Assembly (NCBI GenBank): GCA_048939245.1
Contig: JBHLPR010000027.1
Coordinates: 1-28,717 of the forward strand
Length of the DNA stretch: 28,717 nt
Reading direction: 5' to 3'
Source of the DNA: Promethearchaeota archaeon
Lineage (GTDB): Archaea; Asgardarchaeota; Hermodarchaeia; Hermodarchaeales; Hermodarchaeaceae
Shown: piece after piece, positions 2 through 22,593 of the stretch
Numbering within the stretch: position 1 is the first letter of the stretch
Layout of the letters: each line of letters begins with the position of its first letter
Translations under genes and position numbers: made by a program
Notes under the pieces: model-generated
Databases searched by the model: none
What the model was told of the DNA's origin: nothing
What the model saw: the letters and a program-made list of their open reading frames with translations, nothing else

Positions 2-298
2 CATCCCATTGTGCAGTTTTATGAACGTCCCACTCTTCGCAAATATAACTTCGTTTCCCAGTGGATGATTGACAGTGGGATGCGGAGCGGAATAAAATCT
101 AAAGAAATGCGGGCAAGAACTATCACTCTTTACATCGATAAAGCCGAATTTGATAAAGCCTTGGATATCCCAACTGAAGATACGATTCATCTTTTCTTAG
201 TCGATTGTGATGGCACCATCCTTTGGCGAGATACAGGAAATTTCTCAGAAGAGAAAGAAGCTACAGTGATGAAAGCTCTCTCTAAATTTAAGGGCTAA
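2..298 (+). CDS. ATP10-like thioredoxin-fold protein, 5'-truncated by the window edge
   Basis: Frame is open back to base 2. Motifs YERPTL..IDSGMRSGI..TITLYIDK..FLVDxDGxILW..G resemble prokaryotic ATP10-family proteins. Confidence 0.6.
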   Translation, partial: HPIVQFYERPTLRKYNFVSQWMIDSGMRSGIKSKEMRARTITLYIDKAEFDKALDIPTEDTIHLFLVDCDGTILWRDTGNFSEEKEATVMKALSKFKG

Positions 299-396
299 TT
301 CAATTTTTTATCAGGCTAAAATGGTTACCTTGATAGATTTTTGAATAAGTTGTTTCCCTATCCTTCTGTAATCCTCTTCAATAGGAGTAATTCAAG

Positions 397-1035
397 ATGG
401 CTGGAGAAGAATTGTTGGTCTTCTGGATCATGGCAGCAATATTTGGTATCGCAACTGTGATGTTTACCTTACTTTCCTTTCGTTCAGATTCAAATGAGTT
501 TTATGCCTTCGTCGATATTCTCGTTACCTTCATAACAACGATTTCATATGTACTCATGGCGCTGGGGTTCTTAGTGGTCACTTCTGGTATTGGTGAACCG
601 GTGTATTGGAGTCGATGGCTCTTTTACATGGGTAGCTGTAGTTTACTGACCGTTTCTGTTGTAGTTATCCTTAAACAAACTCAGGCAATTAATTTCGCAA
701 AAATTCCTATCTTAACGATGCTTGTAATGTTCTGTGGTTTTCTCGCGGCTTTTATTACAAGTATTGAGCGATGGTGGTTCTTTGTATTCAGTTCCATTGC
801 CTACATTGCCTTATTAATCACCTTGTTTAAAGGGGTGCCTCGAGAAGGAATGAATTCACAACTTATGTGGTTCATCGTCATCTTCTGGTCTCTATTTCCT
901 GGCGTATTTATCCTTGCACCAACCGGTTTCGGCTTGATACCCACATTATATGCAGCGATTCTCTATGCTGCACTGGACGTGATAACAAAAATCGTCTATG
1001 GGTTCATTATCCTGTTTCGAGTGAAAGATAAGTAA
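397..1035 (+). CDS. Microbial rhodopsin of schizorhodopsin type (short 7-TM opsin, retinal Lys present)
   Basis: 212 aa with about 7 hydrophobic segments. Helix C YWSRWLFYMGSCSLL has Phe at the BR D85 position followed by S-C, as in schizorhodopsins. Helix F FWSLFP; helix G LDVITK (D194, K198). AGGAG RBS upstream. Confidence 0.88.
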   Translation: MAGEELLVFWIMAAIFGIATVMFTLLSFRSDSNEFYAFVDILVTFITTISYVLMALGFLVVTSGIGEPVYWSRWLFYMGSCSLLTVSVVVILKQTQAINFAKIPILTMLVMFCGFLAAFITSIERWWFFVFSSIAYIALLITLFKGVPREGMNSQLMWFIVIFWSLFPGVFILAPTGFGLIPTLYAAILYAALDVITKIVYGFIILFRVKDK

Positions 1036-1168
1036 TCTAAATAACAGAATCACATGGTCAAAGTGAGTATTGAGTCATAGTATAATCAGTGGTTCAGAAT
1101 TTAACCTCTGCCTGAATGCATCTAGTCTATCAAACTGTGACCACTAGTAATTTTTTCCAACTATCTCC

Positions 1169-2563
1169 TTATCGATTTAACGAAGTGGTCGCAAAGAGTT
1201 CCTTTGAATATTGACTCTCCTCTTTGTGATTTACTATTGGTTTTGGGTAATTGATTTGCGAATCAAATGGTGTTGGTTTAAACCAACGATGAATAAGTTT
1301 TGGTTGTAGGTCTGATAATTCTGGAATCCATTTCTTGATATACTCACATTTTACGTCGTATTTCTCTTGTTGGCGCCAGGGATTAAAAATTCGGAAATAG
1401 GGTTGGGCATCGGCTCCTGTTGAGGCTGCCCATTGCCAGTTTCCATTATTCACGCATGGATCATAATCGGTGAGGTGTTGTGCAAAATAGCGTTCACCCC
1501 ATCGCCAGTCGATATGGAGATCCTTGGTCAGGAAAGATCCGACAATCATTCGAACCCGATTGTGCATCCAACCCGTTGTATTTAGTTCGCGCATACCAGC
1601 GTCAACGATTGGGAAGCCGGTGTTTCCCTGACACCACATCTCAAAAAGAGTTTGACTGTAGTTCCATTGAAGGGAATCATAGCGTGATTTGAAGGCATTT
1701 TTGAATACGTAAGGGAAATGGAAAGCAATGTGGGTGTAGAAGTCTCGCCAGTAGAGCTGGCGTATTAATGGATGATTGGTTCCAAGGTGTTTGGTGATGG
1801 CATGATAGACTTCGCGAATTGAACACAACCCAAATTTGATATATGTTGATAAGCGTGTGGTTCCATGTTGGTTTGGAAAATCCCTCGTTGTCTGATAATT
1901 CTTGTAACGGCTGAGATTGGAGAGGATGTCTAAGCATGCTGCTCTATTACCTTGAACAAGAAGTGACTCGTTGGGTTTAGTTCTTATCTGCTTGATTATG
2001 CCAATTTTAGGTTTTTGAGGTGCTTTGCTTGTTTTCAGATAATTGGTGTAGGTGTTCTCTTTTGGAGTAGAAATTGGGCGTGCTGATGCCTTTTTGAAAA
2101 AGGGAGTAAATATTTTGTAGGGTTTGGTTTTTCCGGTAAAGATCATTTCTGGTTCATTTAGTAAAGAATCGCCGAATGAATGAAATCCCACTTTATAGTC
2201 CTTACAAATCTGTTTAATCTGAGTGTCTCTTCTCCGACTAAAGGGGGAGTAATCTCGGTTTATATAGAGTCCATCAATTTCATATTCTGTTAACAGGGAT
2301 GGAATGATCTTTTCTGGAATGCCTAAAAGGTAAAGGAGCTGGCTCTTCTTCTTTTTTAGTTGGGCATCTAAATCGTCAAGTGCTTCCATCATGAATTGGA
2401 TCGCATTCAGGTGGGGTTGGGCCTGTTCTATTAGCCGGGGATCAAAGATGAAGCAGGGAAGGGTTTTGTCCGAATTTGCTAAGGCATGAATTAATGCAGT
2501 ATTATCAGCCAGTCGGAGATCACGACGAAAAATGAATAAAGGCTTAACATAGGATTTATTCAA
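1169..2563 (-). CDS. phrB: Deoxyribodipyrimidine (CPD) photolyase
   Basis: FRRDLRLADN N-terminus, WRDFY, TGFPIVDAGMREL, GWMHNRVRM, DYDPCVNNGNWQW and FRIFNP FAD-binding motifs. Likely TTG start at 2563; the ORF track extends to 2611. Confidence 0.95.
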   Translation of the reverse strand: MNKSYVKPLFIFRRDLRLADNTALIHALANSDKTLPCFIFDPRLIEQAQPHLNAIQFMMEALDDLDAQLKKKKSQLLYLLGIPEKIIPSLLTEYEIDGLYINRDYSPFSRRRDTQIKQICKDYKVGFHSFGDSLLNEPEMIFTGKTKPYKIFTPFFKKASARPISTPKENTYTNYLKTSKAPQKPKIGIIKQIRTKPNESLLVQGNRAACLDILSNLSRYKNYQTTRDFPNQHGTTRLSTYIKFGLCSIREVYHAITKHLGTNHPLIRQLYWRDFYTHIAFHFPYVFKNAFKSRYDSLQWNYSQTLFEMWCQGNTGFPIVDAGMRELNTTGWMHNRVRMIVGSFLTKDLHIDWRWGERYFAQHLTDYDPCVNNGNWQWAASTGADAQPYFRIFNPWRQQEKYDVKCEYIKKWIPELSDLQPKLIHRWFKPTPFDSQINYPKPIVNHKEESQYSKELFATTSLNR

Positions 2564-2639
2564 GTTGGTGCCCCTAGCAATATATCGATATCGAATATAT
2601 GTGAGAAGCAATTCCTCAAGTATGTATGGGGTGAACTAA

Positions 2640-3116
2640 GTGTCGATTGTTAAATTACCACAAATGGAGCATCAGATGGTTGAGGATTTACTAAATTCTC
2701 AAGTGATTTGCCGCATAGCCTTTCGGGGGGATGATTATCCATACATGGCACCTTTTCAGTATGCTTATGTTGATGGAAATCTCTATTTTCATTTTACTCG
2801 CTATGGAAAGAAAATGAAACTGCTTGAAGAGGATAATCGGGTTGCGGTGGAGATTGAAGCTTTTGAGCCAGCTCTTCATCAATATTGTTTTGTCGTGTTT
2901 CGAGGAGAACTTGTTTTAGTTCGTGATTCTATGGAAAGGGAGAAAGCGATAAACCATATGGCTAAGTTTGGATCCGAAAAACTGTCAACTAATTTTCTAG
3001 CAGCACATGGGTTGAAGAGATCTGATGGCTGGCAAGCGTTGACAGTTGAGAAACCATTGAATATTGTGAAGCTCACAAACATCGTCGAAACAATTGCTTT
3101 GGGTTCGCCTGATTAA
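2640..3116 (+). CDS. Pyridoxamine 5'-phosphate oxidase-like / NimA-type FMN-binding split-barrel protein
   Basis: RIAF..YPYMAP..LYFH..GKKM..NRVAVE pattern; divergent from the photolyase. Confidence 0.8.
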   Translation: MSIVKLPQMEHQMVEDLLNSQVICRIAFRGDDYPYMAPFQYAYVDGNLYFHFTRYGKKMKLLEEDNRVAVEIEAFEPALHQYCFVVFRGELVLVRDSMEREKAINHMAKFGSEKLSTNFLAAHGLKRSDGWQALTVEKPLNIVKLTNIVETIALGSPD

Positions 3117-3247
3117 TTCGAACTGGGCTCTCTTAAAATGATAAATGAATACGAACAGATTGTTGGTCCTCAGTCTTGGAAGCGAACCGGAGCGATGGTT
3201 TTGCACCGGATGCTCAGACTGCGATTTATGCTGTCCACGAATTGTTT

Positions 3248-3523
3248 TTAGCCTTTGCGGAAGGCTATGCCAAAAGTTCCGCGTGGATAATTCCATTGGA
3301 TGGCGTCTTTATTGCATATGATTTTGCATGTGCCACATTCGATGCAGTCTTCATATTGGAATTGGACTTGGCCCTCGATAAGTTGAAAGCAGTGTGCTGG
3401 ACAGGCAAGTCTGCAGGGTTTGGATTCACATTCTTTGCATTCTTCAAAATTGACTAAAATGTGGGCTTCTTTATCGATATTGTATCGGAGCGTGCTAAGT
3501 TTGGTTTCAATATTATCCCTCAT
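3248..3523 (-). CDS. fixX: Ferredoxin-like protein FixX
   Basis: AHI, CxxC, CPAxC, CIECGTC and WxYPRGxFGI motifs; ATGA overlap with the upstream fixC. Confidence 0.9.
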   Translation of the reverse strand: MRDNIETKLSTLRYNIDKEAHILVNFEECKECESKPCRLACPAHCFQLIEGQVQFQYEDCIECGTCKIICNKDAIQWNYPRGTFGIAFRKG

Positions 3524-4818
3524 AGGCCTCTCACCGCTTGTAATCCATCGATCATGAGGTGTGGAATCGATAATTCGTGAACGATATTTTTGAGGAGTAG
3601 GTTAAGGAGCTTGGGTCGGGGTGTTGCTTTTGACTGGTATAATTGTAGGACTAACTCGTTGATGAAATCTGGATACCGCTCCATTAGGCGGGGGTTGCTT
3701 ACTATGGCTGGTGCATGACGAAACGTTTTCAGGTTTTTGAAAACAAAACTTTGTTTCATTAGATATTGATAATATTTCATGGTCTTTTTAGTAAAATCGT
3801 TCCGTTGTTGGGCTCTAGCGATTGTCGTGGCAGCAGCAATACCTGATGCGATAGCAAAGTTCATCCCTTCAAGAGCATAGCCAATATTAAGGGCGAACCC
3901 TGCAGCATCGCCTGTGACGAGAAAGCCATTGGAATACAACTTAGAAAGCGCTTGATATCCACCTTCGGGAACAAGGTGTGCTGAATATTCAATGTGATTT
4001 CCATCCTTGATTAATCGTTGAACATAGGGGAATTGTTTCAGATAATCAATGAATTCAAAGGATTTCGTTTTTATATCATTCTTGAAGGTTGGAAGCTTGA
4101 CGACTATTCCCAAAGAGAGGCTTTCACGGTTGGTGTAAAGAAACCCTCCACCAGGAAATCCCTTAGTACAGCCCAAATAGGTATGAGCTGCCCCCTCATC
4201 ATCTTCGAGGTGAAACCGATTTTCGATTATTTCACGGGGGAGTTGAATGACTTCTTTAATACCAAGGCCGATATTCTTGGTTTTTAGATCTTTGCGTAAA
4301 CCTGCATGCTCAGTTAGCAGTGAATTGATTCCATCAGCTGCAACAACTACATTTGCCCGAATCTCATCATCACCAGCTTTGATTCCGATAACACGGTTGT
4401 TTTCCCAAAGTAGGTTATCAACTCGAATGCCGGTGGCAAGGAGTGCTCCAGCTTCTTCTGCGCGTTTGGCAAACCATTGATCAAAGTCATAGCGGATGAT
4501 GGAATAGCCGTTATGTGGGGGCTTTTCAAGTCGTTTACTAGAAAAATCAAACGAGAGTGAAGATTGACCGCTTAGGAAGACAAGGTTCCTGTTGGTAATC
4601 GTCCGTTCGAGTGGTGCATCTTCCCAGAAATTTGGTATCAAATCATGAAGCACAGATCCAAATAGTACGCCTCCTGAGACATTTTTTTCTCCGGGAGTTT
4701 TTGCTCGTTCGATTAAAAGCACTTCATGCCCTGATTTGGCAAGGCTATACGCGGTGGCTGAACCAGCGGGTCCTGCTCCAACTACGATTGTATCGACTTT
4801 TTCAACCATTTTTTTCAT
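3520..4818 (-). CDS. fixC: FixC-family FAD oxidoreductase (ETF:quinone oxidoreductase-like)
   Basis: VGAGPAG, GEKNVSGG, ADGINS, GGGFLYTN, EYSAHLVPEGG and GDAAGF..EGMNFAIASG motifs; coupled to fixX. Confidence 0.88.
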   Translation of the reverse strand: MKKMVEKVDTIVVGAGPAGSATAYSLAKSGHEVLLIERAKTPGEKNVSGGVLFGSVLHDLIPNFWEDAPLERTITNRNLVFLSGQSSLSFDFSSKRLEKPPHNGYSIIRYDFDQWFAKRAEEAGALLATGIRVDNLLWENNRVIGIKAGDDEIRANVVVAADGINSLLTEHAGLRKDLKTKNIGLGIKEVIQLPREIIENRFHLEDDEGAAHTYLGCTKGFPGGGFLYTNRESLSLGIVVKLPTFKNDIKTKSFEFIDYLKQFPYVQRLIKDGNHIEYSAHLVPEGGYQALSKLYSNGFLVTGDAAGFALNIGYALEGMNFAIASGIAAATTIARAQQRNDFTKKTMKYYQYLMKQSFVFKNLKTFRHAPAIVSNPRLMERYPDFINELVLQLYQSKATPRPKLLNLLLKNIVHELSIPHLMIDGLQAVRGL

Positions 4819-4821
4819 TCC

Positions 4822-6348
4822 CTATGTGCTTTTTGATTTTTCTTCTATTGGGATGCCGTAATCTTCAAAAATTAAATCTGTCGACACTTTTCCGCTAAGG
4901 AATGCACTTGGGACGCCTCCGCCTGGATGCGTTCCTGCTCCAACAATATAAAGTCCTTTGACATCCCGTGAACGGTTATGGGGCCTAAACCATCCGGATT
5001 GGGTCATGAGGGGTTGTAATTGGAAGGCGTTGCCTTTGTATGCATTGAATTCTTGTTCAAAATCTTGTGGGGTGAAGACTTCGCATACCTCGATGTTCTC
5101 CAAAAGGTCGGGGAGATAATTATCATTGAGAAATTGTAGTACCTTGTCTCGAAAGGGTTCCTTCATTTGATCCCAATCAATACCCGAATCTTGGTTGGTT
5201 ACAGGCACACAGGCATAGAAGGTTTCACATCCTTCTGGTGCTAACTCTGGATCCGTTCGTGTGGGGACATGCAGGTAGATGGCAAAATCGTCGGGTAAGA
5301 TATGACGATCGAAGATATCCTTGACCAATTCCTTATATCGTGGGCTGAAGATGATATTGTGGTGAGGCATTTCCGGATAGCGTTTCTTTGTACCAAAATA
5401 GATCATAAATAGGCTCATGCTATACTTTGCTTTCTTGTATCGACGATTACTATTTTTGCGACGGTATTTCTTGTCAATTAGGCTCATGTATGTCATTGCT
5501 ACATCTGCGTTGCTGATCACAATATCGGCGGGATAGAGTTCTTTGTTGTTAACAATGACTCCGGTGACTTTTCGGTCTTCATCATCGACTTCTATCATGG
5601 TAACCTCTGAGTTGAGTTTGATTGTGCCACCGAGTTCTTTGAATAATCGTTCTAGGGCTTCAACGAGTCGATGGGTACCCCCTCGGACCCAGAGCATGCC
5701 ATATTCACTTTCGAGGTATGCGATTAGTGAATAGACGCTAGTAGTGGTAAAGGGGTTTCCACCGATGAAAAGAGGGAGAAAGGAGAACGCCATGCGAAGA
5801 TGGGGGTGTTTCATGTTGCTTGCTACAAGGCCATAAACGCTCTTATACGATTTCAGTCGGATTGCTGAAGGAACAATTTTTGCCATGCTCCACAGACTTT
5901 CAAAGGAGATCATGGCAAATTTCTCAAATCCCAATTCATAAATGGGTTTCAATAGCTTGAGCCAGCGATGATATCCTTTGATGTCCTTGGGGCTGATTTT
6001 TTTGATCTGTTCAGTAATTTCGTCAATAGTTCCAATATCAAAGTGGGAACCATCGGCAAAATGAAGACGATAATGTGGATGGATTGGTACTAATTCAATA
6101 TACTTGGAGGGGTCTCGTCCCACATCGTGAAACACATCTTCTACCACAAACGGCGGTGTTACAATTGTAGGTCCGGTATCGAACCTGTATCCTTTTCTTT
6201 CAAAGACACCTGCTCGACCTCCAAGTTGGTGACGTTTCTCTAATAATACAACTTGGTATCCTGCAGCCTGCATCCTTACAGCTGCGGATAGACCACCAAA
6301 TCCTCCACCGATCACAATCACATTAGATGGGGTAGTCGTTTGATTCAT
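4822..6348 (-). CDS. crtI: Phytoene desaturase
   Basis: IGGGFGGL FAD motif, FDTGPTIVT, GGNPF, HHNIIF and the C-terminal FRPHN..GAGTHPGGGVP signature; directly downstream of crtB. Confidence 0.9.
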   Translation of the reverse strand: MNQTTTPSNVIVIGGGFGGLSAAVRMQAAGYQVVLLEKRHQLGGRAGVFERKGYRFDTGPTIVTPPFVVEDVFHDVGRDPSKYIELVPIHPHYRLHFADGSHFDIGTIDEITEQIKKISPKDIKGYHRWLKLLKPIYELGFEKFAMISFESLWSMAKIVPSAIRLKSYKSVYGLVASNMKHPHLRMAFSFLPLFIGGNPFTTTSVYSLIAYLESEYGMLWVRGGTHRLVEALERLFKELGGTIKLNSEVTMIEVDDEDRKVTGVIVNNKELYPADIVISNADVAMTYMSLIDKKYRRKNSNRRYKKAKYSMSLFMIYFGTKKRYPEMPHHNIIFSPRYKELVKDIFDRHILPDDFAIYLHVPTRTDPELAPEGCETFYACVPVTNQDSGIDWDQMKEPFRDKVLQFLNDNYLPDLLENIEVCEVFTPQDFEQEFNAYKGNAFQLQPLMTQSGWFRPHNRSRDVKGLYIVGAGTHPGGGVPSAFLSGKVSTDLIFEDYGIPIEEKSKST

Positions 6349-6393
6349 TCTCTTTTCACCATCAATAATTCGTATCCTACTAATTACTCAAAG

Positions 6394-7347
6394 TTAGGGG
6401 TGAATTACGAACTCTCTCAAATCGCGTAAATATTCTCGCCGACATTGAAGAGAAATCCAGAACTTCTTCCATTTGGGTACATACACCCGTTTTTTGAAGA
6501 CATCATAATTCACTTTCTCGATTTCATCGAGAATATTTGCGTAAACACGAGCCGCAACTTTCACAGAAAATGCTGCAGCTGGTGGAAGATCTTGAATGCC
6601 AATTTCTGCTGTTGCATAGTTTGCACGAGCATTGGCAATTTCGAATTTAATTAAATTCCTGAAATTTGGAGTGATTTTTCGAGCTTCAAAATCTTCTCTT
6701 CTAATCCTGAACTTCTTACGTACCTCAACTGGTATGTAGATTCGTCCTTTATCGAAGTCTTCTGCAATATCCCGCAAAATGTTTGTTTGTTGCATGGCGA
6801 TTCCAAGATCAGAGGCTCGTTGAAGCGTCTCTGGATGGATAGCTCGCCAGATGTGGCACATAGAGAGTCCCACCGTGGATGCTACACGAAAACAGTAGAG
6901 TTCTAGCTCTTGTTGGGTTTGGATTTCTTGGTGATGAACGTCCATGCGGACGCCTTCCAGTAACTCATATAGGTATTGGACTGGGATTTGATATTTTACC
7001 AAGGTGTCTCCAAAGGCGTGAAATACTGGGTGGTTAAAGGTTTCTCCGTTGCTTAACCGGCTTATAATCTCGGCTAGTCTATTTATTTCAGTATCAATTT
7101 GTTTTGGCTCGAGGTCTATTTCATCAACGAAGTCATCAGCTAACCGGCAAAATCCATAAAGTGCAGCGATGCTTCTACGTTGTTCTGGTTCAAGGTAACG
7201 TGAAGCAAAAGAAAATGATTTGGCATGTTTTCCGAATAGGTTCATACAATAGTCGTATGCGCGGTTGAGATCGGCAGATGTGAAGTTATCCTTGGTTTGG
7301 ATTTGGGTTGGTATGACTTCTAGATGGTAACGTTCTCCCCTAATCAT
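6394..7347 (-). CDS. crtB: Phytoene synthase
   Basis: AKSFSFAS, LYGFCRLADDFVD, YCFRVASTVG and LGIAMQQTNILRDIAED..GRIYIP squalene/phytoene synthase motifs. Confidence 0.93.
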   Translation of the reverse strand: MIRGERYHLEVIPTQIQTKDNFTSADLNRAYDYCMNLFGKHAKSFSFASRYLEPEQRRSIAALYGFCRLADDFVDEIDLEPKQIDTEINRLAEIISRLSNGETFNHPVFHAFGDTLVKYQIPVQYLYELLEGVRMDVHHQEIQTQQELELYCFRVASTVGLSMCHIWRAIHPETLQRASDLGIAMQQTNILRDIAEDFDKGRIYIPVEVRKKFRIRREDFEARKITPNFRNLIKFEIANARANYATAEIGIQDLPPAAAFSVKVAARVYANILDEIEKVNYDVFKKRVYVPKWKKFWISLQCRREYLRDLREFVIHP

Positions 7348-7551
7348 TGATTTAACGCTCCAATAGGCTAAACTTAACGGGGTTGATTTTGGGTTGGGGG
7401 GATATTTTTTGCTTATAAATAATTTCCTCTTACTATCGTCATAATCTAATACATATCACAATTTGTTTAAAGAACAATTAGACGTCACAATAATGCATAA
7501 TGATTAAATAAAGCAAGCTATGACAGCGCTTTATTCTGAGGGAACGCTACA
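7348..7551. promoter_or_regulatory. AT-rich divergent promoter region between crtB and crtD
   Basis: 204-bp non-coding gap between head-to-head operons, with TATA-like boxes (TTATAAAT, TTAAATA) and a short TTGTT-N5-AACAA inverted repeat. Confidence 0.55.
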
Positions 7552-9030
7552 ATGGCTATTCAGAACATATTGGTTATTGGTGCAGGCGTAGGCGGATTAT
7601 CTGCTGCTGCCTTACTAGCAAAAGAAGGCTATGATGTCACCATCATTGAAAGGAATGCAGAACCCGGAGGACGGGCGCGAGTTTGGAAAACCGAAGGATT
7701 TGTCTTTGATATGGGACCCTCTTGGTACCTGATGCCTGAAATCTTTGAGTATTTTTTTAATGAATTTGGGAAATCAGTTTCGGATTATTATGAATTAATA
7801 CGGTTGGATCCGAATTATCGCATTTTCTTTGGCACTGACGATATTGTCGAGATTACTGCTGATCTTGAACCAAATCTGCAAACTTTTGAAGGATTTGAAG
7901 CAGGTGGTTCGAAGAAACTCCAAGAATATTTGGACAAAGCCAAGGACACCTATGAGTATATGATGGAAGGCATCATGTACAAAGACCTAGACAGCTTTTG
8001 GTCAATGTTTAGTCCGTCATTAATGAAAGCAGGAATGAAATTGCACATCCTAAGTAACATTGATGAATACGTCCAAAAATTCTTCAGAAGTGACCGTGCT
8101 CGAAAAATTCTAGAATATCCAATTGTGTTTCTTGGTGGAAATCCGAAAAATACTCCTGCGCTCTACTCTATCATTTCACATATTGATTACAATCTGGGTG
8201 TCTGGTATCCGCGAGGTGGTATCGGGAAAATCCCTGAAAGTCTAATGAATTTGGCAAAGGAGCAAGGTGCTGATATCCAGTTTGGGGTTGAAGCAACTCA
8301 TATTGATGTAAAGAATCGCTTTGCCCATCGAGTCCAAACATCAGAAGGTGGCATTGATACAGACTTGGTGGTTGTCAATGCTGATTATCCCTGGAGTGAA
8401 ATCAATTTACTTGACTCATCATATGAGACTTATCCTGCAAAATATTGGGAGAAGAAGGTAATTGCTCCTTCCGCATTCGTTGTCTATCTAGGCGTTGATA
8501 GGAAACTGGACCAGCTCACTCACCATAATGTCTTTTTAGAATACGATTGGGTTCAACATTTCGACCAGATTTTCAAGAAACCTTCATGGCCTGATAAGCC
8601 TGCATACTATGTCTGTTGTCCATCAAGATACGATTCCTTGGTAGCTCCAAAGGGCAAAGAGAATATTTTCATTACCGTTCCCATTTCGCCTGGAATTGAA
8701 GATACACCAACAATTCGTAGCGCGTATCTTGACAAAATTATCGCTCATATGGAGAAACTTATTGGTGAACGATTCCGAGACGAAATAAGTGTTAAGCGGA
8801 TTTTCTCGTTGAATGATTTCTCTAAAGATTATAATGCATACCAAGGGACTGCCGTTGGTCTCACTCATACTTTTCGCCAATCTGCTTTCTTCCGTCCACG
8901 ACACCGAAGTAAGAAAGTGAAAAACCTTTACTACACAGGTCAGTACACGCATCCTGGAATCGGGGTGCCAATGGCCCTTGTTTCCTCAAAGATTGTCACT
9001 GACCAAATCAATAAACACTTTGAAGGCTGA
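7552..9030 (+). CDS. crtD: Second CrtI-family carotenoid desaturase, probably carotenoid 3,4-desaturase CrtD
   Basis: IGAGVGGL, FDMGPSWYLMP and HTFRQSAFFRP..TGQYTHPGIGVPM motifs. First gene of a desaturase-elongase-hydratase triplet as in haloarchaea. CrtD versus CrtI is inferred from context only. Confidence 0.72.
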   Translation: MAIQNILVIGAGVGGLSAAALLAKEGYDVTIIERNAEPGGRARVWKTEGFVFDMGPSWYLMPEIFEYFFNEFGKSVSDYYELIRLDPNYRIFFGTDDIVEITADLEPNLQTFEGFEAGGSKKLQEYLDKAKDTYEYMMEGIMYKDLDSFWSMFSPSLMKAGMKLHILSNIDEYVQKFFRSDRARKILEYPIVFLGGNPKNTPALYSIISHIDYNLGVWYPRGGIGKIPESLMNLAKEQGADIQFGVEATHIDVKNRFAHRVQTSEGGIDTDLVVVNADYPWSEINLLDSSYETYPAKYWEKKVIAPSAFVVYLGVDRKLDQLTHHNVFLEYDWVQHFDQIFKKPSWPDKPAYYVCCPSRYDSLVAPKGKENIFITVPISPGIEDTPTIRSAYLDKIIAHMEKLIGERFRDEISVKRIFSLNDFSKDYNAYQGTAVGLTHTFRQSAFFRPRHRSKKVKNLYYTGQYTHPGIGVPMALVSSKIVTDQINKHFEG

Positions 9031-9041
9031 GGTTCTAAGCA

Positions 9042-9902
9042 ATGAGTAGCATAGCACGCCTTGCATGGCGGATTTCACGACCACGATTTTGGCTCTACTT
9101 AGGAGGTACGTACCTCATTGGTTATTCCATCGGGGTAACCACGCTCATCCACTTCCTCAATCCCTTCTTCGCGCTTCAACTCTTTTTCTTCATGTTCCCT
9201 GCCAATGTCTTCCTATATGGAGTGAACGACTTCTATGACGAGGACACTGACATCTTTAATCCCAAAAAAGATGACAAGGAATATCGCGTCACTTCCAAGG
9301 ATCGACGAAATCTGCTTGCCCTTATTCTAGTTTCATTCATATTCGGAATAATCCTCATGCTACTTCAACCTGATATCATCGCAATGGCTCTTTTTGGAGT
9401 ATTTCTGTTGCTCTCCTTTCTATACAGCGCTAAACCTATTCGGTTTAAAGCCCATCCATTCATTGATTTCATGTCAAATTTCCTCTATGTTCTCCCCGCA
9501 ATCATTGCCTTCTATCAACTTCGCTTCTTCATTCCCCCGATCCTGCCTCTTTTCGCTGCATTCATGTGGACTTCAGCTATGCACCTTTTCTCAGCCGTTC
9601 CCGATATAGAGGCTGATAAACAGGCGAATATAACCACAACGGCCGTTCTTATCGGAGCTATCCCCTCTCTAATTCTTTGCTTCTCCTTTTGGTTCATTTT
9701 TGCCGTTATTCTGGTTTTTCTCGTTCCTTGGAATCCTCCCTGGAATGTGCTAATGTTTGTCTATCCTGCTATCCCCCTCTATCTTCTTCTGCGTCGAAAA
9801 GCGAACATTGAGAAAGTTTATTGGCTCTATCCTTATTGGAACGCTGTCTTCGGGTTACTCCTATTCTTCACCATTACTATTCCAAAAATCGTGATCCCTT
9901 AA
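9042..9902 (+). CDS. lyeJ: Lycopene elongase (UbiA-family prenyltransferase, LyeJ/CrtEb type)
   Basis: SRPRFWLYL, NVFLYGVNDFYDEDTDxFNPKK, YSAxPIRFK and MHLFSAVPDIEAD motifs; multiple TM segments; position between desaturase and CruF. Confidence 0.85.
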   Translation: MSSIARLAWRISRPRFWLYLGGTYLIGYSIGVTTLIHFLNPFFALQLFFFMFPANVFLYGVNDFYDEDTDIFNPKKDDKEYRVTSKDRRNLLALILVSFIFGIILMLLQPDIIAMALFGVFLLLSFLYSAKPIRFKAHPFIDFMSNFLYVLPAIIAFYQLRFFIPPILPLFAAFMWTSAMHLFSAVPDIEADKQANITTTAVLIGAIPSLILCFSFWFIFAVILVFLVPWNPPWNVLMFVYPAIPLYLLLRRKANIEKVYWLYPYWNAVFGLLLFFTITIPKIVIP

Positions 9903-10657
9903 TGAGTCTCAATCAGTTCAATCGTATTATTCCATTTCTATCTATTCTCATAGGCTCTTATGTCGCAAGCTACTTTTTCTTCTTCTTTCCTGTTGCGCTG
10001 CTCCAAGGTAGCCTTAGTATAGTTATCCTTCTTGTCGCATTACCCTGCTTGTTTTTTCTATATCACTGCGTTGGTTGGAAAAGCACACTCCTCATTGTAC
10101 TCACCCTAGGCGGTTTGGTTTTATTAATTGAAAGTATTGGGTTGTTGACAGGGTTTCCATATGGGGTCTTCTATTACACCGATTTAGTTGGATTCAAAGT
10201 CTTTGGGTTAGTGCCTTGGGCTGTTCCATTCGCGTTTTTACCGCTGCTCCTGGGGGCAATTACATTATCCATTCATTATATCGAAACCCCCTGGAAATTA
10301 ATTCTGGGAACTGCATTGCTTTTAGTAGTTATAGATTTGGTTATCGATCCGATTCTCGTGCACTTGGGGGTTTGGGTGTGGGTGCCGCCTGGAGCATATT
10401 ATGGCGTACCAATCTCTAATTTCGTTGGATGGTTCATAACAGGTCTAATAACCGTCTCGATTTTCTTTGTTCTCATCAAACACCGATTTAATCCAAAGCC
10501 CAGACTACCAATTTTCATTGCCCTAAGTCTTGTCCTTACATTGGCTTTCTGGTCTGGCTATGCTTTGTGGTCTATGCTTTATATCCCATTTGTACTCAGT
10601 CTCTGCTTACTTGGGCTATTCCTATTTACATTCGTTAAATACTGGCCTGTGAATTAG
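9902..10657 (+). CDS. cruF: Carotenoid 1,2-hydratase CruF (bisanhydrobacterioruberin hydratase-like)
   Basis: IESIGLLTGFPYG..Y..G..VP, DLVIDP and W.W...G.YYGVPISNFVGW motifs. ATG at 9902 overlaps the lyeJ stop (TAATG). Confidence 0.85.
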   Translation: MSLNQFNRIIPFLSILIGSYVASYFFFFFPVALLQGSLSIVILLVALPCLFFLYHCVGWKSTLLIVLTLGGLVLLIESIGLLTGFPYGVFYYTDLVGFKVFGLVPWAVPFAFLPLLLGAITLSIHYIETPWKLILGTALLLVVIDLVIDPILVHLGVWVWVPPGAYYGVPISNFVGWFITGLITVSIFFVLIKHRFNPKPRLPIFIALSLVLTLAFWSGYALWSMLYIPFVLSLCLLGLFLFTFVKYWPVN

Positions 10658-10684
10658 ATCCATGGCCTGATGGTGAGGTTATAA

Positions 10685-11554
10685 CTAAAAGAAGATGTAA
10701 TTCAGAAGAGTCGCGAAGACTAGCACAAGACAAATCGTAACAAGATATCTTGGTGCACGATAACGCATTTGAACCGCGTTAGGCGTTGTAGGGGTTTTTA
10801 CTAATTGCACACTCCGATAAATCAACCAGCAAGAGGACACCACCGCCACTATGAGGTAAAGAAACCCAAGTTGACCTATGACGCCAATTACAATACTCAT
10901 TATTGATGCTATTGAAAATAAAACTAGGATTAGTTGCGCAGCGCGTTTCGATGAAATCGCTGTAGAAAATGTAGTGACTTTGTTTACTTTATCAATATCG
11001 ACATCTTGAACTTCACTGATGAGAGTACGGCCCATTTCCCAGGACATCCCAAAGAACACAAAAAAAAGAACGAAAGTTGGGAAATACTGGCCTGTGATTG
11101 CGGCGCTACCCAAGAGAATGATAAAAAACACGGCTAGCATGGTGCACACAAAACTGTACGGAATTTCCTGCTTACGCATGTAATTGTATGCAAAAGGCAA
11201 GGGTATAGCAATGAACGCAAGAAGCACACACAACGGATTAAGGAAGAAAGTGAGCACTACTGCTACCACGCCATATGTCAAACCAAGAATTAAGGCTAAT
11301 CTCGGGGGAACTACTCCGCTAGGAATTACCCGGTTCGCGGTTCTCGGATTTTTTTTATCAGTTATCCAATCAAAGTAGTCATTCAATGTGTGAGCAGAAG
11401 CAATTGCTAACGCAACAGCAACATACCCAGTAAGAAAAGGAATGAAAAACGGAATCGTATTAGTACTCAGAAAAGTTGCAGCTATGTAAAAAGATGTGGT
11501 GGTTAGAAGTACGTAGGGTCGAGTTAGTGAAACAAGTCCCCTTAACTTATCCAT
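10685..11554 (-). CDS. UbiA-family prenyltransferase (DGGGP synthase-like paralog, substrate unknown)
   Basis: LTRP, LNDYFDxxxDxxNPRTANRxIPSG and a second acidic motif EVQDVDID; about 8-9 TM segments. ATG at 11554; ORF track starts at 11569. Confidence 0.8.
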   Translation of the reverse strand: MDKLRGLVSLTRPYVLLTTTSFYIAATFLSTNTIPFFIPFLTGYVAVALAIASAHTLNDYFDWITDKKNPRTANRVIPSGVVPPRLALILGLTYGVVAVVLTFFLNPLCVLLAFIAIPLPFAYNYMRKQEIPYSFVCTMLAVFFIILLGSAAITGQYFPTFVLFFVFFGMSWEMGRTLISEVQDVDIDKVNKVTTFSTAISSKRAAQLILVLFSIASIMSIVIGVIGQLGFLYLIVAVVSSCWLIYRSVQLVKTPTTPNAVQMRYRAPRYLVTICLVLVFATLLNYIFF

Positions 11555-11622
11555 ATCAATTACTTCCAAGATTCAATTAATTAGTATTTCAGTTAGGGCT
11601 AGTCCACTAAAGTAGTGGTACA

Positions 11623-12138
11623 CTAAGAGATTTTTTCGATGACATCTTGTGCGAATCGACGGGCTCGTTGAAGTGCTTCTTCATCTGGAAATCCTCTTGG
11701 CATATCTCTTGCATGTTTTACCCGTTCAACTAATTGTGGGTTCTCAGATTGGAGCATTCCTTCAATAAGTTGCTCACTCATATCACCCTGACAGTGGAAA
11801 AGGTCAACAATGTCTGCTCCCTTAGCAGCATCCCTGCATTTTTGTAACCACTCTTGAAGGGGCGGCGCTTGATCAGGAGAGCCATGAGTGATCACTAATG
11901 CGATTCGCCGGCCATTGACATTTTCTTCAAGCCAGTCCTTTGACTCAGGACCTGGCCCAAACATCTCGATCGGAAATCCGACGAAGGACAAATCGTAGCC
12001 TTCTAAGGATATAGTGTCGTCCCATGGTTTTTGTTCTTTTTAAATTTGAACGGCGTCAAACATTGCATCAATAACCTGTTTTGTGTTACCAGTTGCTGTT
12101 CGATATGTAAAGAGGACTTTCAGGATACCAACCTCCAT
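11623..12138 (-). pseudogene. Flavodoxin-family gene interrupted by an in-frame TAA at 12040-12042
   Basis: The same frame upstream of the listed ORF reads MEVGILKVLFTYRTATGNTKQVIDAMFDAVQI*KEQKPWDDTISLEGYDLSFVGFPI. It contains the flavodoxin Y-x-T-x-T-G-N-T loop, then THGS, CQG and PDEEALQRARRFA. Confidence 0.85.
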
Positions 12139-12283
12139 CGCAGTTCCACTCTGATAATTGATTATTACAGATTTCATTTTGTTTAGGTATCAAACGGAAA
12201 CACCAACTGGGAATGCAATCTGATTCTTCTATTTGGTGGTTGATTCCTGGGGTTTCAGGTTTCTATGGGTGAAGAAAAATTTA

Positions 12284-12324
12284 TATACTACTGAGTATAC
12301 TTATACTACTAATTATACTCAGTA
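12284..12324. promoter_or_regulatory. Palindromic operator upstream of the AbrB-like gene
   Basis: Perfect 11-bp inverted repeat TACTGAGTATA (12289-12299) / TATACTCAGTA (12314-12324), plus direct repeat TATACTACT at 12284 and 12302. Confidence 0.7.
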
Positions 12325-12352
12325 TAAAAAAAATAGAAGTGAAAACTAAACA

Positions 12353-12743: not shown

Positions 12744-14846
12744 GTGATTCAACTTATTGGTGTGCTTGCTGAAGACGGTGTGCCAGTTCGAATTCGGGCA
12801 TTTGTAGATGTAGAATCTGCATCAGTCCTTGGTGGGATTGTTGAGGTTTTGAAAGGATTATCCTCTGAACTGGAACTGGGACAGGTTCAGCGTTTACAAT
12901 TTCAGGAAAATACTCTGCTTGTTACCGAGGCTGAAAAAGGCTATTCAATTATCGCCTTGGCGGATAAAGCGGAAGATTATGTGGAAGGCTTGTTACGTGT
13001 TATCCGAATTGCTATCGATGACTCATCTTTGGTGAAAGCTAGCGAACCTGTCACCGAAAGGATGCGAGTACTTGTAGATGCCATTTTAGATTTTTTTCTA
13101 CAACCAACCTTGGATGTAGCCCTCGAAGAGATCATTGATCCAGTATGGGGCGCTATTCTCGATCGGTTAAACAAGAATAGAGAGTATGCACAGGCTATTG
13201 AGAAGATTGATGTTCTTATTCGTAATTCCAAAGAGCCTGATCAAATCTGGGAAAAACTTGAAGCAAAGGCGAAAGGATCACTTTTAGAGGCTTTGAATCT
13301 CGCGTTCGTTGGACAATTTGATCAAGCTTGTGCAATCGCATTACAACTTGATGAACCACTTGCACAACTTTTTGCTGTCAAAACAGGCCTTCTCGCGCTG
13401 TCGATGACTCATTTAGCCGCTCCGCCCCGTTATCGACTACGCCGAATCGCGGAAGGTCTTCCTCTAAAATATCAACCGTATTCGGAATTAGCGTATGCTA
13501 CGACATTGTATTACGACCGCCTAATGCCGTATGAGGACTATCTGAAAATTTATCAGAATGCGGCTTCAAGATTTACATTCTCAGAGGACGACGAGGGTGT
13601 AATTTTTGCTTTCCTCTTCATTGATACTCGAATTGTAACGCTTCCTGAATTTGCACGTAAATTAGCAGGTTATTTTGAAAAGAAATCACCCATTCTTCAG
13701 AATTACATCCTGGCTATGTCAGATCGACAGCAGTTGTTTACTAAGCTCTATTCAAGCACATCCTATTCGGAATTTAAAAATCAGGTTAGCAGTTGGAAAA
13801 CAAAAATTAGTTCGATTCTAGAAGATGTTAATCAATTCTTAAAACCCGGCTTTTTAGGGAAGTTATTACGTAGCAACCCTGAAGCGGGTCTTAGAGGCTC
13901 GCTTAACTTAGGTACGTATATTGCGTTATATACGGCCTTGGCTGAATCGCCTGTTTTGAATCTTCGGGAACGAAAAGAAGTGCTCGAAGAGGTGTTATGG
14001 GTCTATTCACAATATTTCCGTAAACTACTAGAAAGCAAACTTCCACTCTTTAATTACACAATTGATAGTGTATTTCAAAGTGTTAGCGTTGTGTTAGGCG
14101 AGTTATTCTACCTGCGTTCAGGAGAAGCCCAACACGAACATATCCCAGTGGTTAAGAAATATTTACAGGACGTTCTGGATACTATGACAGTTGATTGGCT
14201 CCGTAAGCATCCAGATACTTCCACCCTGTTTGTATTGTCGAATGCTACATTTCCTGTCCTTCTCTTGGCAAATGCCACAGATGTACTCGAGGTTCGGTTC
14301 CTCTATCTAGCAATGCGTTTGCTTAATACGATGGCATTAATGAAATCACAGAAAATCGATGTTCAAGATTTTACTACGGATTTGCTTAATATCCAAACCT
14401 CGCTAGCAACTTTCATTATACAATTTCTTCCTGATTCACTTGAAAACCAGTATCTAGAACGTTGTGTACGGGTTATACTGCAGGGACATAAGTTTTTCAT
14501 CAAGCACGGAGTCTTATGTCGGGACGATATCGCTTCAGCAACGCTCCTGACAAGATACCTAAGACCGGCCAATTTAACTGATGACTATCGGATTTATGTT
14601 GATTCAGCGATCACTTTGAACCGGGTTGCTGTTCCTGATGTTCAACGGCATGAATCGGATATCGCTATGTTGGCAACGAATTATTTGGGGTTACTGAAAA
14701 AAGCTAGCCAGACCTTTGATGATGAGAAGTACGTGAAACTTGCGAAGACTGCGTTTCAGCAGACCGTTGAAGTTTGGAATAAATATGGATTCGAATATAA
14801 AGCTCAGGAATTCCAGAAACAATATGGCCGGATATTTCAAGATTGA
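12744..14846 (+). CDS. Large protein with N-terminal longin-like domain and helical solenoid-like remainder
   Basis: First ~120 aa (LIGVLAEDGVPV..LGGIVEVLKGLSSEL..VQRLQF..LLV..YSIIALAD) fit the longin beta-beta-alpha-beta-beta-beta-alpha pattern. The rest is Leu/Ala-rich amphipathic helices. Confidence 0.55.
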   Translation: MIQLIGVLAEDGVPVRIRAFVDVESASVLGGIVEVLKGLSSELELGQVQRLQFQENTLLVTEAEKGYSIIALADKAEDYVEGLLRVIRIAIDDSSLVKASEPVTERMRVLVDAILDFFLQPTLDVALEEIIDPVWGAILDRLNKNREYAQAIEKIDVLIRNSKEPDQIWEKLEAKAKGSLLEALNLAFVGQFDQACAIALQLDEPLAQLFAVKTGLLALSMTHLAAPPRYRLRRIAEGLPLKYQPYSELAYATTLYYDRLMPYEDYLKIYQNAASRFTFSEDDEGVIFAFLFIDTRIVTLPEFARKLAGYFEKKSPILQNYILAMSDRQQLFTKLYSSTSYSEFKNQVSSWKTKISSILEDVNQFLKPGFLGKLLRSNPEAGLRGSLNLGTYIALYTALAESPVLNLRERKEVLEEVLWVYSQYFRKLLESKLPLFNYTIDSVFQSVSVVLGELFYLRSGEAQHEHIPVVKKYLQDVLDTMTVDWLRKHPDTSTLFVLSNATFPVLLLANATDVLEVRFLYLAMRLLNTMALMKSQKIDVQDFTTDLLNIQTSLATFIIQFLPDSLENQYLERCVRVILQGHKFFIKHGVLCRDDIASATLLTRYLRPANLTDDYRIYVDSAITLNRVAVPDVQRHESDIAMLATNYLGLLKKASQTFDDEKYVKLAKTAFQQTVEVWNKYGFEYKAQEFQKQYGRIFQD

Positions 14847-21555: not shown

Positions 21556-22593
21556 ATGAGTAAACCCCAATTTATTTTCAAAGTCCCCGTAGCCGGAGAC
21601 GGTGCCGTCGGCAAGACCAGCCTCATCGTCCGGTACACCCAGGGAACTTTTACTGAGACGTACAAAATGACTATTGGCACCTCTTTTGCGGTGAAAACAG
21701 TTGATTTAGATCAGGTGATAGTGAAGCTGCAAATTTGGGATTTGGCGGGACAACCACATTTTGGAGGGGTGCGTCCGTTATTTTATCAGGGGTCAACGGG
21801 CGTCATTTACGTATTTAGTGTGACGGATCGAGCCTCGTTTGATCATTTGGCGGGTTGGCTTGAGGAGGCGCGGAAGAATTCAGGGAATATTCCGGGAATC
21901 CTGATTGGGAATAAGACTGACTTGATGGATCAACGAGTGGTGTCGCGTGAGGAAGCGGAGGCATTCGCGGCCCAAGCAAGCTTAAGGTATATTGAGACAA
22001 GCGCGAAGATGGATGAAAATGTAGGGGATGCCTTTCATTTAATGGCAGCGACGATTATGGAGACCAAACCGGAGTATGGCGTCACCTCTGAAGCTCCGGT
22101 TAAAGTTGCAGTTCCTGAACCAGAAGCGGAACCAGAGGTTAGTCAGCCAGAAGAGCCACAAGTGACGGCTTCTGAGGTTGAACCTGAACCGGAAGTTGAA
22201 CCGATTCCCCTTATCTTAGATGAGTCTGAGGTTCAGAGTCCACCAACACCTGTGCCTGAGCCAGTAGCCCCTGAACCTGAGGTTATTAAGCCGGTTGAGC
22301 CTCCACCGGTAAGTGAATCCGAACCAGTCTCCGTTTCTCCTCCAAGTGAACCCGAGGTGTCATCTGAAGATGTCGTTGTGGAAGTGAAATCCACATCTAA
22401 CCTTGTGGAATTCGTAGGGATTGACCCTCACAGTCTTTCAGAGGAGGATTTTGAGAAAAGATCGATTCATGCAATGCAACGGTTAGGCGTAAGTGAAGTA
22501 GGAGTGTTGGGGACGTTTCTTCGTAGTTTGATTCGTCAAGGGCAACGGGGTGTTGTGATTGAAAGTTTGGAGAGTCTCCAGAAAGATCGCTAG
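21556..22593 (+). CDS. Rab-like small GTPase with long Pro/Glu-rich C-terminal extension
   Basis: G1 GDGAVGKT, G2 YKMTIG, G3 WDLAGQ, G4 NKTD, G5 ETSAK; RabF2 KLQIW intact; AGGAG RBS. Confidence 0.93.
   Translation: MSKPQFIFKVPVAGDGAVGKTSLIVRYTQGTFTETYKMTIGTSFAVKTVDLDQVIVKLQIWDLAGQPHFGGVRPLFYQGSTGVIYVFSVTDRASFDHLAGWLEEARKNSGNIPGILIGNKTDLMDQRVVSREEAEAFAAQASLRYIETSAKMDENVGDAFHLMAATIMETKPEYGVTSEAPVKVAVPEPEAEPEVSQPEEPQVTASEVEPEPEVEPIPLILDESEVQSPPTPVPEPVAPEPEVIKPVEPPPVSESEPVSVSPPSEPEVSSEDVVVEVKSTSNLVEFVGIDPHSLSEEDFEKRSIHAMQRLGVSEVGVLGTFLRSLIRQGQRGVVIESLESLQKDR

Follow-up and report, generated by a model that had tools for sequence, protein, structure and literature searches.

A pigment, photolyase and schizorhodopsin gene cluster that is probably ancestral to the Asgard genus Hermodarchaeum

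Why should an archaeon whose relatives are usually treated as dark-sediment anaerobes keep a rhodopsin, a photolyase and a set of carotenoid genes side by side? The question is raised by positions 2–12138 of contig JBHLPR010000027.1 (assembly GCA_048939245.1), a stretch of 28,717 nucleotides that is called the window here. A first-pass annotation of the sequence took this part for a self-contained photoprotection and light-sensing system of a light-exposed Asgard lineage. Family scans placed every gene that it had named where it had put it, and its photoprotective content stood. We favour, with a probability of roughly 0.7, the reading that the genus Hermodarchaeum has here its ancestral cluster for photo-oxidative protection, built in two layers: an older pigment block that Thorarchaeia also have and a light-specific layer gained in Hermodarchaeum.

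Conservation of the cluster in the genus

The survey covered 15 genomes of the genus (72–91% complete) and four of its sister genus (80–83% complete). Most genomes of the genus carry cluster genes: phr (photolyase), crtB, lyeJ and fixC were each present in 13, the opsin gene in 11 and cruF in seven, while opsin, phr, crtB, lyeJ and cruF were not found in the four sister-genus genomes. Because six genus genomes hold everything from opsin through crtB on a single contig, the clustering is not a matter of chance, and phr, a PNPOx-like gene, crtI and crtB stay together in about 10, so that the linkage proposed earlier does recur in relatives. Wherever a relative's assembly covers the place, the PNPOx-like gene adjoins phr, and it belongs to the cluster core.

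The fuller ancestral order runs ATP10-like, opsin, fasciclin, BCP, Staygreen, phr, PNPOx-like, B12 protein, fixX, fixC, crtI, crtB, crtD, lyeJ, cruF. The window genome holds a reduced copy of it: BCP lies on a separate contig, just the final ~70 nt of the B12 gene remain, and neither fasciclin nor Staygreen was found. In most relatives, fasciclin, the BCP peroxiredoxin and Staygreen come after the opsin (L003:10885–12324 and equivalents). Some fasciclins bind carotenoids, and Staygreen, which removes Mg from chlorophyll, could disarm photosensitisers. Together with a photocobilin-like B12 protein, these three complete the protective set in relatives; of the four genes, the window species appears to have lost all but BCP.

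A probably older pigment block

The pigment genes are arranged head to head. On the reverse strand lie the phytoene desaturase gene crtI (4822–6348, −; TIGR02734, 567 bits against a cut-off of 238) and crtB (6394–7347, −; PF00494), which was assigned as phytoene synthase by context; both of its Asp-rich motifs are intact, and neither the NCBIfam CrtB nor the HpnD model scored over cut-off. On the forward strand follow crtD, encoding a carotenoid 3,4-desaturase (7552–9030, +; NF058655, 675.6 bits against 640), a lyeJ-type lycopene elongase gene with intact Asp motifs (9042–9902, +; PRK12875, 290.6 bits against 205) and a cruF-like hydratase gene (~9902–10657, +), the start of which overlaps the lyeJ stop. 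The cruF-like product is over the cut-off of PF04240 (142.8 bits) and under that of TIGR03460 (116 bits against 154.7), and the position of its gene is right; in the genus cruF is patchy, with one copy broken. In the type species, cruF is broken into three frames (L003:19604–20452) and the B12 gene is a remnant.

The crtB, crtI, lyeJ and crtD genes of a bacterioruberin-type C50 pathway are all present and intact, and haloarchaea use the triad crtD-lyeJ-cruF for bacterioruberin (PMC9258230). CrtB and CrtI would yield lycopene, which LyeJ, CrtD and CruF are predicted to extend to a bacterioruberin-type acyclic C50 carotenoid, and such a pigment would stiffen the membrane and quench reactive oxygen.

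A corresponding block is found in Thorarchaeia (family f6, named from the labels on matching contigs), where lyeJ occurs in 17 of 76 genomes. The order crtI-crtB / crtD-lyeJ-cruF is identical in 11 of 11 fully read loci, four of which have fixX-fixC attached, and the five f6 genomes with a window-type fixC all carry the crt block. In the Thorarchaeia pigment loci that were read, no opsin or photolyase was linked, so the pigment block appears to be the older layer, which the light genes joined in Hermodarchaeum. Across Asgards, a crtI-like gene is present in 56 of 301 genomes. In a CrtI tree the sequences group by Asgard class, separate from the sampled bacterial ones; this tree, like the opsin tree below, is a quick and unrooted one built on top-hit samples, and it provides a lead towards an old residence of CrtI in Asgards.

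Some loci in other classes deserve description in their own right. Three Thorarchaeia loci (L037:7238–16983, L045 and L046) read fixX-fixC-crtI-crtB / crtD-lyeJ-cruF, continue with a polyprenyl synthase gene and a further UbiA, and adjoin pyruvate-dehydrogenase-like and lipoate-ligase-like genes. Hodarchaeales-type genomes (f21; L083:5187–14056, L084:442–5644, L052:244–12727 and L051:5661–14917) have a light/UV cluster of their own, with varying subsets of crtI, crtB, a lycopene-cyclase-domain gene, photolyase, UvsE, TspO, a Rieske oxygenase, a PNPOx-like gene and a CarH-like regulator that joins a helix-turn-helix (HTH) to a B12-binding domain. An apparent lack of photolyase in crt-bearing Thorarchaeia (0/76 by a class I query) was discarded, as four of five tested have an unlinked photolyase, of class II in both that were checked.

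The Thorarchaeia loci also raise the rival that survives best, although we consider it unlikely: the carotenoid block may be a light-independent adaptation to membrane or oxidative stress, with phr and opsin as mere neighbours since the genus ancestor that are not co-regulated with it. The metabolic surroundings of the Thorarchaeia block, which lacks a linked opsin or photolyase, are in keeping with this, as are the separation of the parts in one Hermodarchaeum genome (G009) and the repeated deletion of the candidate B12 sensor. However, the group from phr to crtB persists even where its flanks differ, relatives have a CarH-type B12 domain within the cluster, and in Hodarchaeales crtB/crtI have independently come to lie with phr, UvsE and an HTH-B12 regulator. 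The unlinked photolyases of Thorarchaeia tell against this rival as well.

A proposed electron outlet for desaturation

The fixC gene (3520–4818, −), encoding a flavoprotein of the electron-transfer flavoprotein (ETF):quinone-oxidoreductase type, starts 4 bp after crtI, has fixX (3248–3523, −; ferredoxin, PRK15449, E 3.6e-18) adjacent and is the only fixC of the window genome. Its product matches FixC of PDB 7KOE at E 4e-79, as against E 4e-15 for geranylgeranyl reductase, an identity that was thereby rejected. Fused to the crtB-crtI transcript, FixCX would most likely take the desaturation electrons in the absence of oxygen. Such an electron outlet is the simplest reading of the crtI-fixCX linkage, which is kept in two classes. 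No heme-copper oxidase was found, in keeping with an anaerobe that meets light or oxygen only briefly.

Several observations pull the other way. The fixAB (etf) genes are not adjacent to fixCX; fixCX lies apart from crtI in six genus genomes and occurs in one sister-genus genome without crt genes. Against the favoured reading of the cluster as a whole stand that missing oxidase and a linkage that is not absolute: opsin and phr-crt are on different contigs in G009, and no opsin was found at the locus in G010 or G013. With etfA and etfB elsewhere in the window genome and more distant fixCX copies away from crt in other genomes, FixCX may instead be a housekeeping ETF partner.

Photolyase and a photocobilin-like protein

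The light-specific layer includes a class I cyclobutane pyrimidine dimer (CPD) photolyase (phr; 1169–2611, −; probable start near 2566). Both domains (PF00875 and PF03441) are present, the best PDB matches are the class I photolyases of Sulfolobus and Anacystis, and the Trp triad and the Asn of the flavin adenine dinucleotide (FAD) site are kept, with Gln at the site of E. coli E274; its scores stay below the equivalog cut-offs of NCBIfam. Photolyases need light to act, and this one would repair UV dimers. Divergent from phr lies the PNPOx-like gene (2640–3116, +; PF12900, E 6e-20), encoding a split-barrel protein that binds flavin mononucleotide.

Between the latter and fixX lies a remnant (3155–3247, +), the 3' end of a photocobilin-like gene, which matches the last ~20 codons and the DNA of an intact B12 gene at the same place in relatives; no intact copy was found in the window genome. 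Three Hermodarchaeum relatives retain it as a stand-alone gene in the cluster (L009:3732–4787, L005:4367–5416 and L022:16335–17453). The protein of 350 aa has the CarH-type motifs W-x9-EH and ExHxxG, and its best PDB matches are the photocobilins 8J2W/X/Y, with the domain order reversed, the globin-like part first and the B12-binding part second. No DNA-binding or HTH domain was found in these intact proteins, and with only the remnant in the window the locus does not have the make-up of a CarH/LitR-type regulon. The gene has been deleted at least three times. The photocobilin-like protein is the natural candidate light switch, and a likely one.

A bolder version of this history is, in our estimate, about as improbable as the light-independent one. 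Oxygen-independent C50 synthesis, with FixCX draining the desaturase electrons, would be an old Asgard trait inherited by both Thorarchaeia and Hermodarchaeia, to which Hermodarchaeum would have added light control through a new schizorhodopsin subtype and the domain-reversed photocobilin. If true, this would make Hermodarchaeum the first anaerobic Asgard with pigment synthesis under light control.

A schizorhodopsin without the usual helix-C acid

By sequence and fold, the opsin (397–1035, +; PF01036, E 2.7e-24) is a schizorhodopsin. Its closest PDB entry is SzR4 (7E4G), both in sequence (E 6e-31) and in its seven-transmembrane type-1 fold (TM-score 0.89/0.96, root-mean-square deviation 1.3); the helices are short, the retinal Lys stands in DxxxK, and identity to the characterised pump MtSzR is 52%. 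Relative to bacteriorhodopsin (BR), it has Arg73 at R82, Phe76 at D85, Ser80 at T89, Cys81 at T90 and Ser82 at P91, with D194 as counterion and Lys198 as retinal Lys. Its motif is F76-S80-S87, with Ser at the SzR4 E81 site and Asp40 at the SzR4 N34 site. The cytoplasmic acid of the BR D96 (E81) site is therefore absent, and Ser87 takes its place in 38 of 38 close relatives (≥65% identity). These 38 form a single clade (SH-aLRT 99), and all have an acid on helix B (37 Asp, one Glu).

Within the MtSzR-like group, the helix-C acid has been lost in three separate lineages, each with Asp or Glu on helix B, whereas lineages with His or Asn at the helix-B site retain it. The two further lineages that have lost it while holding the helix-B acid carry the motifs F-S-N and F-S-Q/V (P0210, P0047, P0062, P0067, P0076). 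The E81-site acid is typical of schizorhodopsins and not universal (58/63; PMC7148096). E81Q abolishes pumping in SzR1 and SzR4, which tells against pumping by the window opsin, while SzR2 H82F and AntR E81Q still pump (PMC7148096, PMC8040798). In MtSzR, D40 and D87 are bridged by water. The kept pump residues (R73, F76, S80, C81, L84, D194 and K198), the helix-B acid in all three lineages without the E81-site acid and the pumping of these two mutants favour inward transport of protons via D40 over sensing. We therefore regard inward pumping as probable, a sensory role as a lesser possibility and action without retinal as improbable.

Upstream of the opsin lies the 3' part of an ATP10-like gene (2–298, +), whose complete product of 152 aa has a thioredoxin fold and no CxxC; a full-length copy matches PF05176 weakly (E 1e-4) and has an Atlas likeness of 0.97 to ATP10-like clusters. 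In most relatives the gene immediately precedes the opsin, and it stays upstream even in a 70%-identical relative that has no crt genes close by. This conserved neighbour gives some substance to the light-sensing role of the first-pass annotation, which can be spelled out as an opsin that has lost pumping and switches the cluster on, possibly via the ATP10-like protein or via LyeJ. Analogies exist for both routes: ASRT serves Anabaena sensory rhodopsin, and a haloarchaeal apo-opsin acts on LyeJ. The uniform Ser on helix C and the lack of a retinal-synthesis gene are also compatible with it, and sensing has been proposed for the analogous Thermoprofundales heliorhodopsin (PMC9585477). On the other side stand the retained inward-pump residues, the invariable helix-B acid, and natural or mutant schizorhodopsins that pump without E81. 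Furthermore, it was phr and not the opsin that the ATP10-like gene accompanied in G009, and LyeJ occurs without opsin in Thorarchaeia, where we take it to work. As the family is one of inward proton pumps, the light-sensing role was not upheld, and the full scheme seems a little less credible still than the two histories above. In the favoured reading, the schizorhodopsin, with scavenged retinal, would most likely pump protons inward, and the Asp on helix B would take the part of the acid that helix C has lost.

How the opsin obtains its retinal bears on the claim of self-containment. The brp/blh family (PF15461) was over cut-off in none of the 19 genomes of the class, and in the window genome (88% complete) neither a crtY-type cyclase (PF18916) nor RPE65 (PF03055) was found; matches to PF05834 were rejected as lycopene cyclases, the two strongest being geranylgeranyl reductases. 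The locus thus lacks the crtBIY plus blh/brp content of a retinal-producing rhodopsin operon, and retinal must be scavenged or made by another route. Together with the deleted B12 sensor candidate, a broken flavodoxin and a second UbiA that occurs in three genomes only, this leaves the term self-contained without foundation. Heliorhodopsin was not found in the window genome by a search that was positive in G052. A UbiA gene beside a distant opsin (L096) proved to be neither UbiA2 nor a clear LyeJ orthologue.

Host, continuity and flanking genes

The Asgard assignment was correct: the host belongs to Hermodarchaeum, the GTDB genus of G014 (Ca. Hermodarchaeum yapensis), and ten metagenome-assembled genomes, several labelled Hermodarchaeota, carry opsin genes 78–84% identical to that of the window. 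The type species came from Yap seawater, and another Asgard of the same sample has been described as euphotic (10.1101/2020.10.19.343400). In a second assembly (GCA_016550425.1), which breaks elsewhere, the entire window lies on a single 99-kb contig at 99.96% identity. At the read level, one Logan contig covers 9177–13827 without any difference at a depth of 8–16 throughout; its run is a possible source sample of the window DNA. Runs X1 and X2 may be where the DNA came from, and mangrove and marsh runs of small share played no part in judging habitat. Three other species join the cluster to the same backbone, independently of any single sample: lyeJ is linked with a 700-aa gene and thyX in G011 and with thyX-asnS2-lrp in G003, and in G008 a single contig runs from the cluster through to the Rab-like gene.

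The cluster is not a compositional island, its tetranucleotide distance being at the 75th percentile among 12-kb chunks of the host genome and the third-codon-position GC content (GC3) of its genes inside the host range. A recent genomic island was rejected in view of this host-like composition and the presence across the genus, with no mobility gene or patchiness to mark one; tRNA sites, flanking repeats and sigma-70-type signals were not found above chance in the window. That the contig is chimeric, or that a donor outside the Asgards recently supplied an island, is conceivable for a metagenome-assembled genome whose contig begins inside a gene, and is refuted in practice by the junction shared with other species, the agreement of the second assembly and the reads, the composition, and the closest CrtI relatives, which are all Asgard-labelled where named.

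Two genes at the cluster's edge are not core, since the extra UbiA-family prenyltransferase gene (UbiA2; 10685–11569, −), an accessory, is at the corresponding place in only three genomes, the window genome included, and the flavodoxin moves with the AbrB-like gene. No NCBIfam model was over cut-off for UbiA2. The flavodoxin (11623–12138, −), listed simply as such before, is a pseudogene: codon 33 is an in-frame TAA, which the second assembly shares. The pseudogene goes with the flanking backbone, and its orthologues in relatives are intact beside the AbrB-like gene. Just upstream of that gene, an inverted repeat (12279–12334; 25 nt, 80% complementary, 6-nt spacer) is a possible operator.

Farther along, the Rab-like gene (21556–22593) is confirmed as encoding a clear Ras-family GTPase (E 4e-50), which bears a C-terminal extension of ~170 aa rich in Pro and Glu. 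The 700-aa protein (12744–14846), previously called longin-like, has no Pfam match; the N-terminal 130 aa resemble Asgard longin clusters by Atlas features only (0.89–0.91), so that the name is a lead. Its gene is present in four of 15 genus genomes and in all four of the sister genus. A surface protein with the sorting-like C-terminal tail PPPPIPGF-TM-RRRR, where TM is a transmembrane segment, is encoded at 26937–28715, where the gene leaves the contig end; it has 748 aa in the second assembly.

Significance and comparison with known systems

The cluster would identify an entire Asgard genus as one adapted to intermittent light, and its predicted C50 pigment could be a lipid marker for Hermodarchaeia and Thorarchaeia. 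The opsin would be a natural schizorhodopsin without a residue held essential for pumping, and the crtI-fixCX pairing may explain desaturation without oxygen. Light use by some Asgards has already been published, a view that the cluster leaves unchanged: schizorhodopsins of Loki-, Thor- and Heimdallarchaeia, along with a niche in light-exposed sediment (10.1101/385732; PMC7495880), lycopene synthesis in Heimdallarchaeia (PMC11193907), and crtB, crtI, lyeJ and crtD in Kariarchaeum (PMC12137139). With the rhodopsin-carotenoid-photorepair cluster of sediment Thermoprofundales (PMC9585477) also on record, the earlier claim that the combination is undescribed would hold at most for the physical cluster in an Asgard lineage and not for its parts. 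Literature searches, with most subscription papers outside their reach, returned nothing on this cluster, on a cruF-containing C50 pathway in Hermod- or Thorarchaeia, or on an F-S-S opsin.

A close parallel is Thermoprofundales subgroup E (PMC9585477), likewise sediment archaea with rhodopsin, crtB, crtD and phrB in a single cluster, a photoprotective reading and, in some genomes, the full bacterioruberin set including cruF. These non-Asgards differ in having a heliorhodopsin rather than a schizorhodopsin, as well as UvsE, crtZ, cruA and crtU, and no fixCX is reported. The crtD-lyeJ-cruF operon of Haloarcula japonica (PMC9258230) has the same three genes in the same order, whereas the Hermodarchaeum triad stands head to head with crtB-crtI-fixCX, its cruF is patchy and under the CruF cut-off, and crtY and brp/blh for retinal are lacking. 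Ca. Kariarchaeum pelagium (PMC12137139) is an Asgard with crtB, crtI, lyeJ, crtD and rhodopsins, linear carotenoids only and retinal presumed to be scavenged; in contrast, it has an outward-pumping HeimdallR and heliorhodopsins, its rhodopsin and crt genes are given as separate loci, and neither cruF nor a linked photolyase is described.

Among single proteins, SzR4 (7E4G), MtSzR (10.1101/2025.10.20.683367) and SzR2 share with the window opsin the fold, the F-S motif, Cys81, Ser at BR P91, the single counterion and the retinal Lys, and MtSzR also shares the helix-B D40; the window opsin differs in that its E81/D87 site holds Ser87 and no carboxylate. CarH/LitR regulons and photocobilins (PMC10979010) resemble the relatives' cluster in having a B12-binding domain with W-x9-EH and ExHxxG beside crt/phr. 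The relatives' protein is unlike photocobilins in that its globin-like part is N-terminal and not C-terminal; it has no DNA-binding domain, and its gene is deleted in the window genome. Other archaea have clusters of this kind, and Asgards are known to use light; it is on the physical cluster in Asgards that the literature searches returned nothing.

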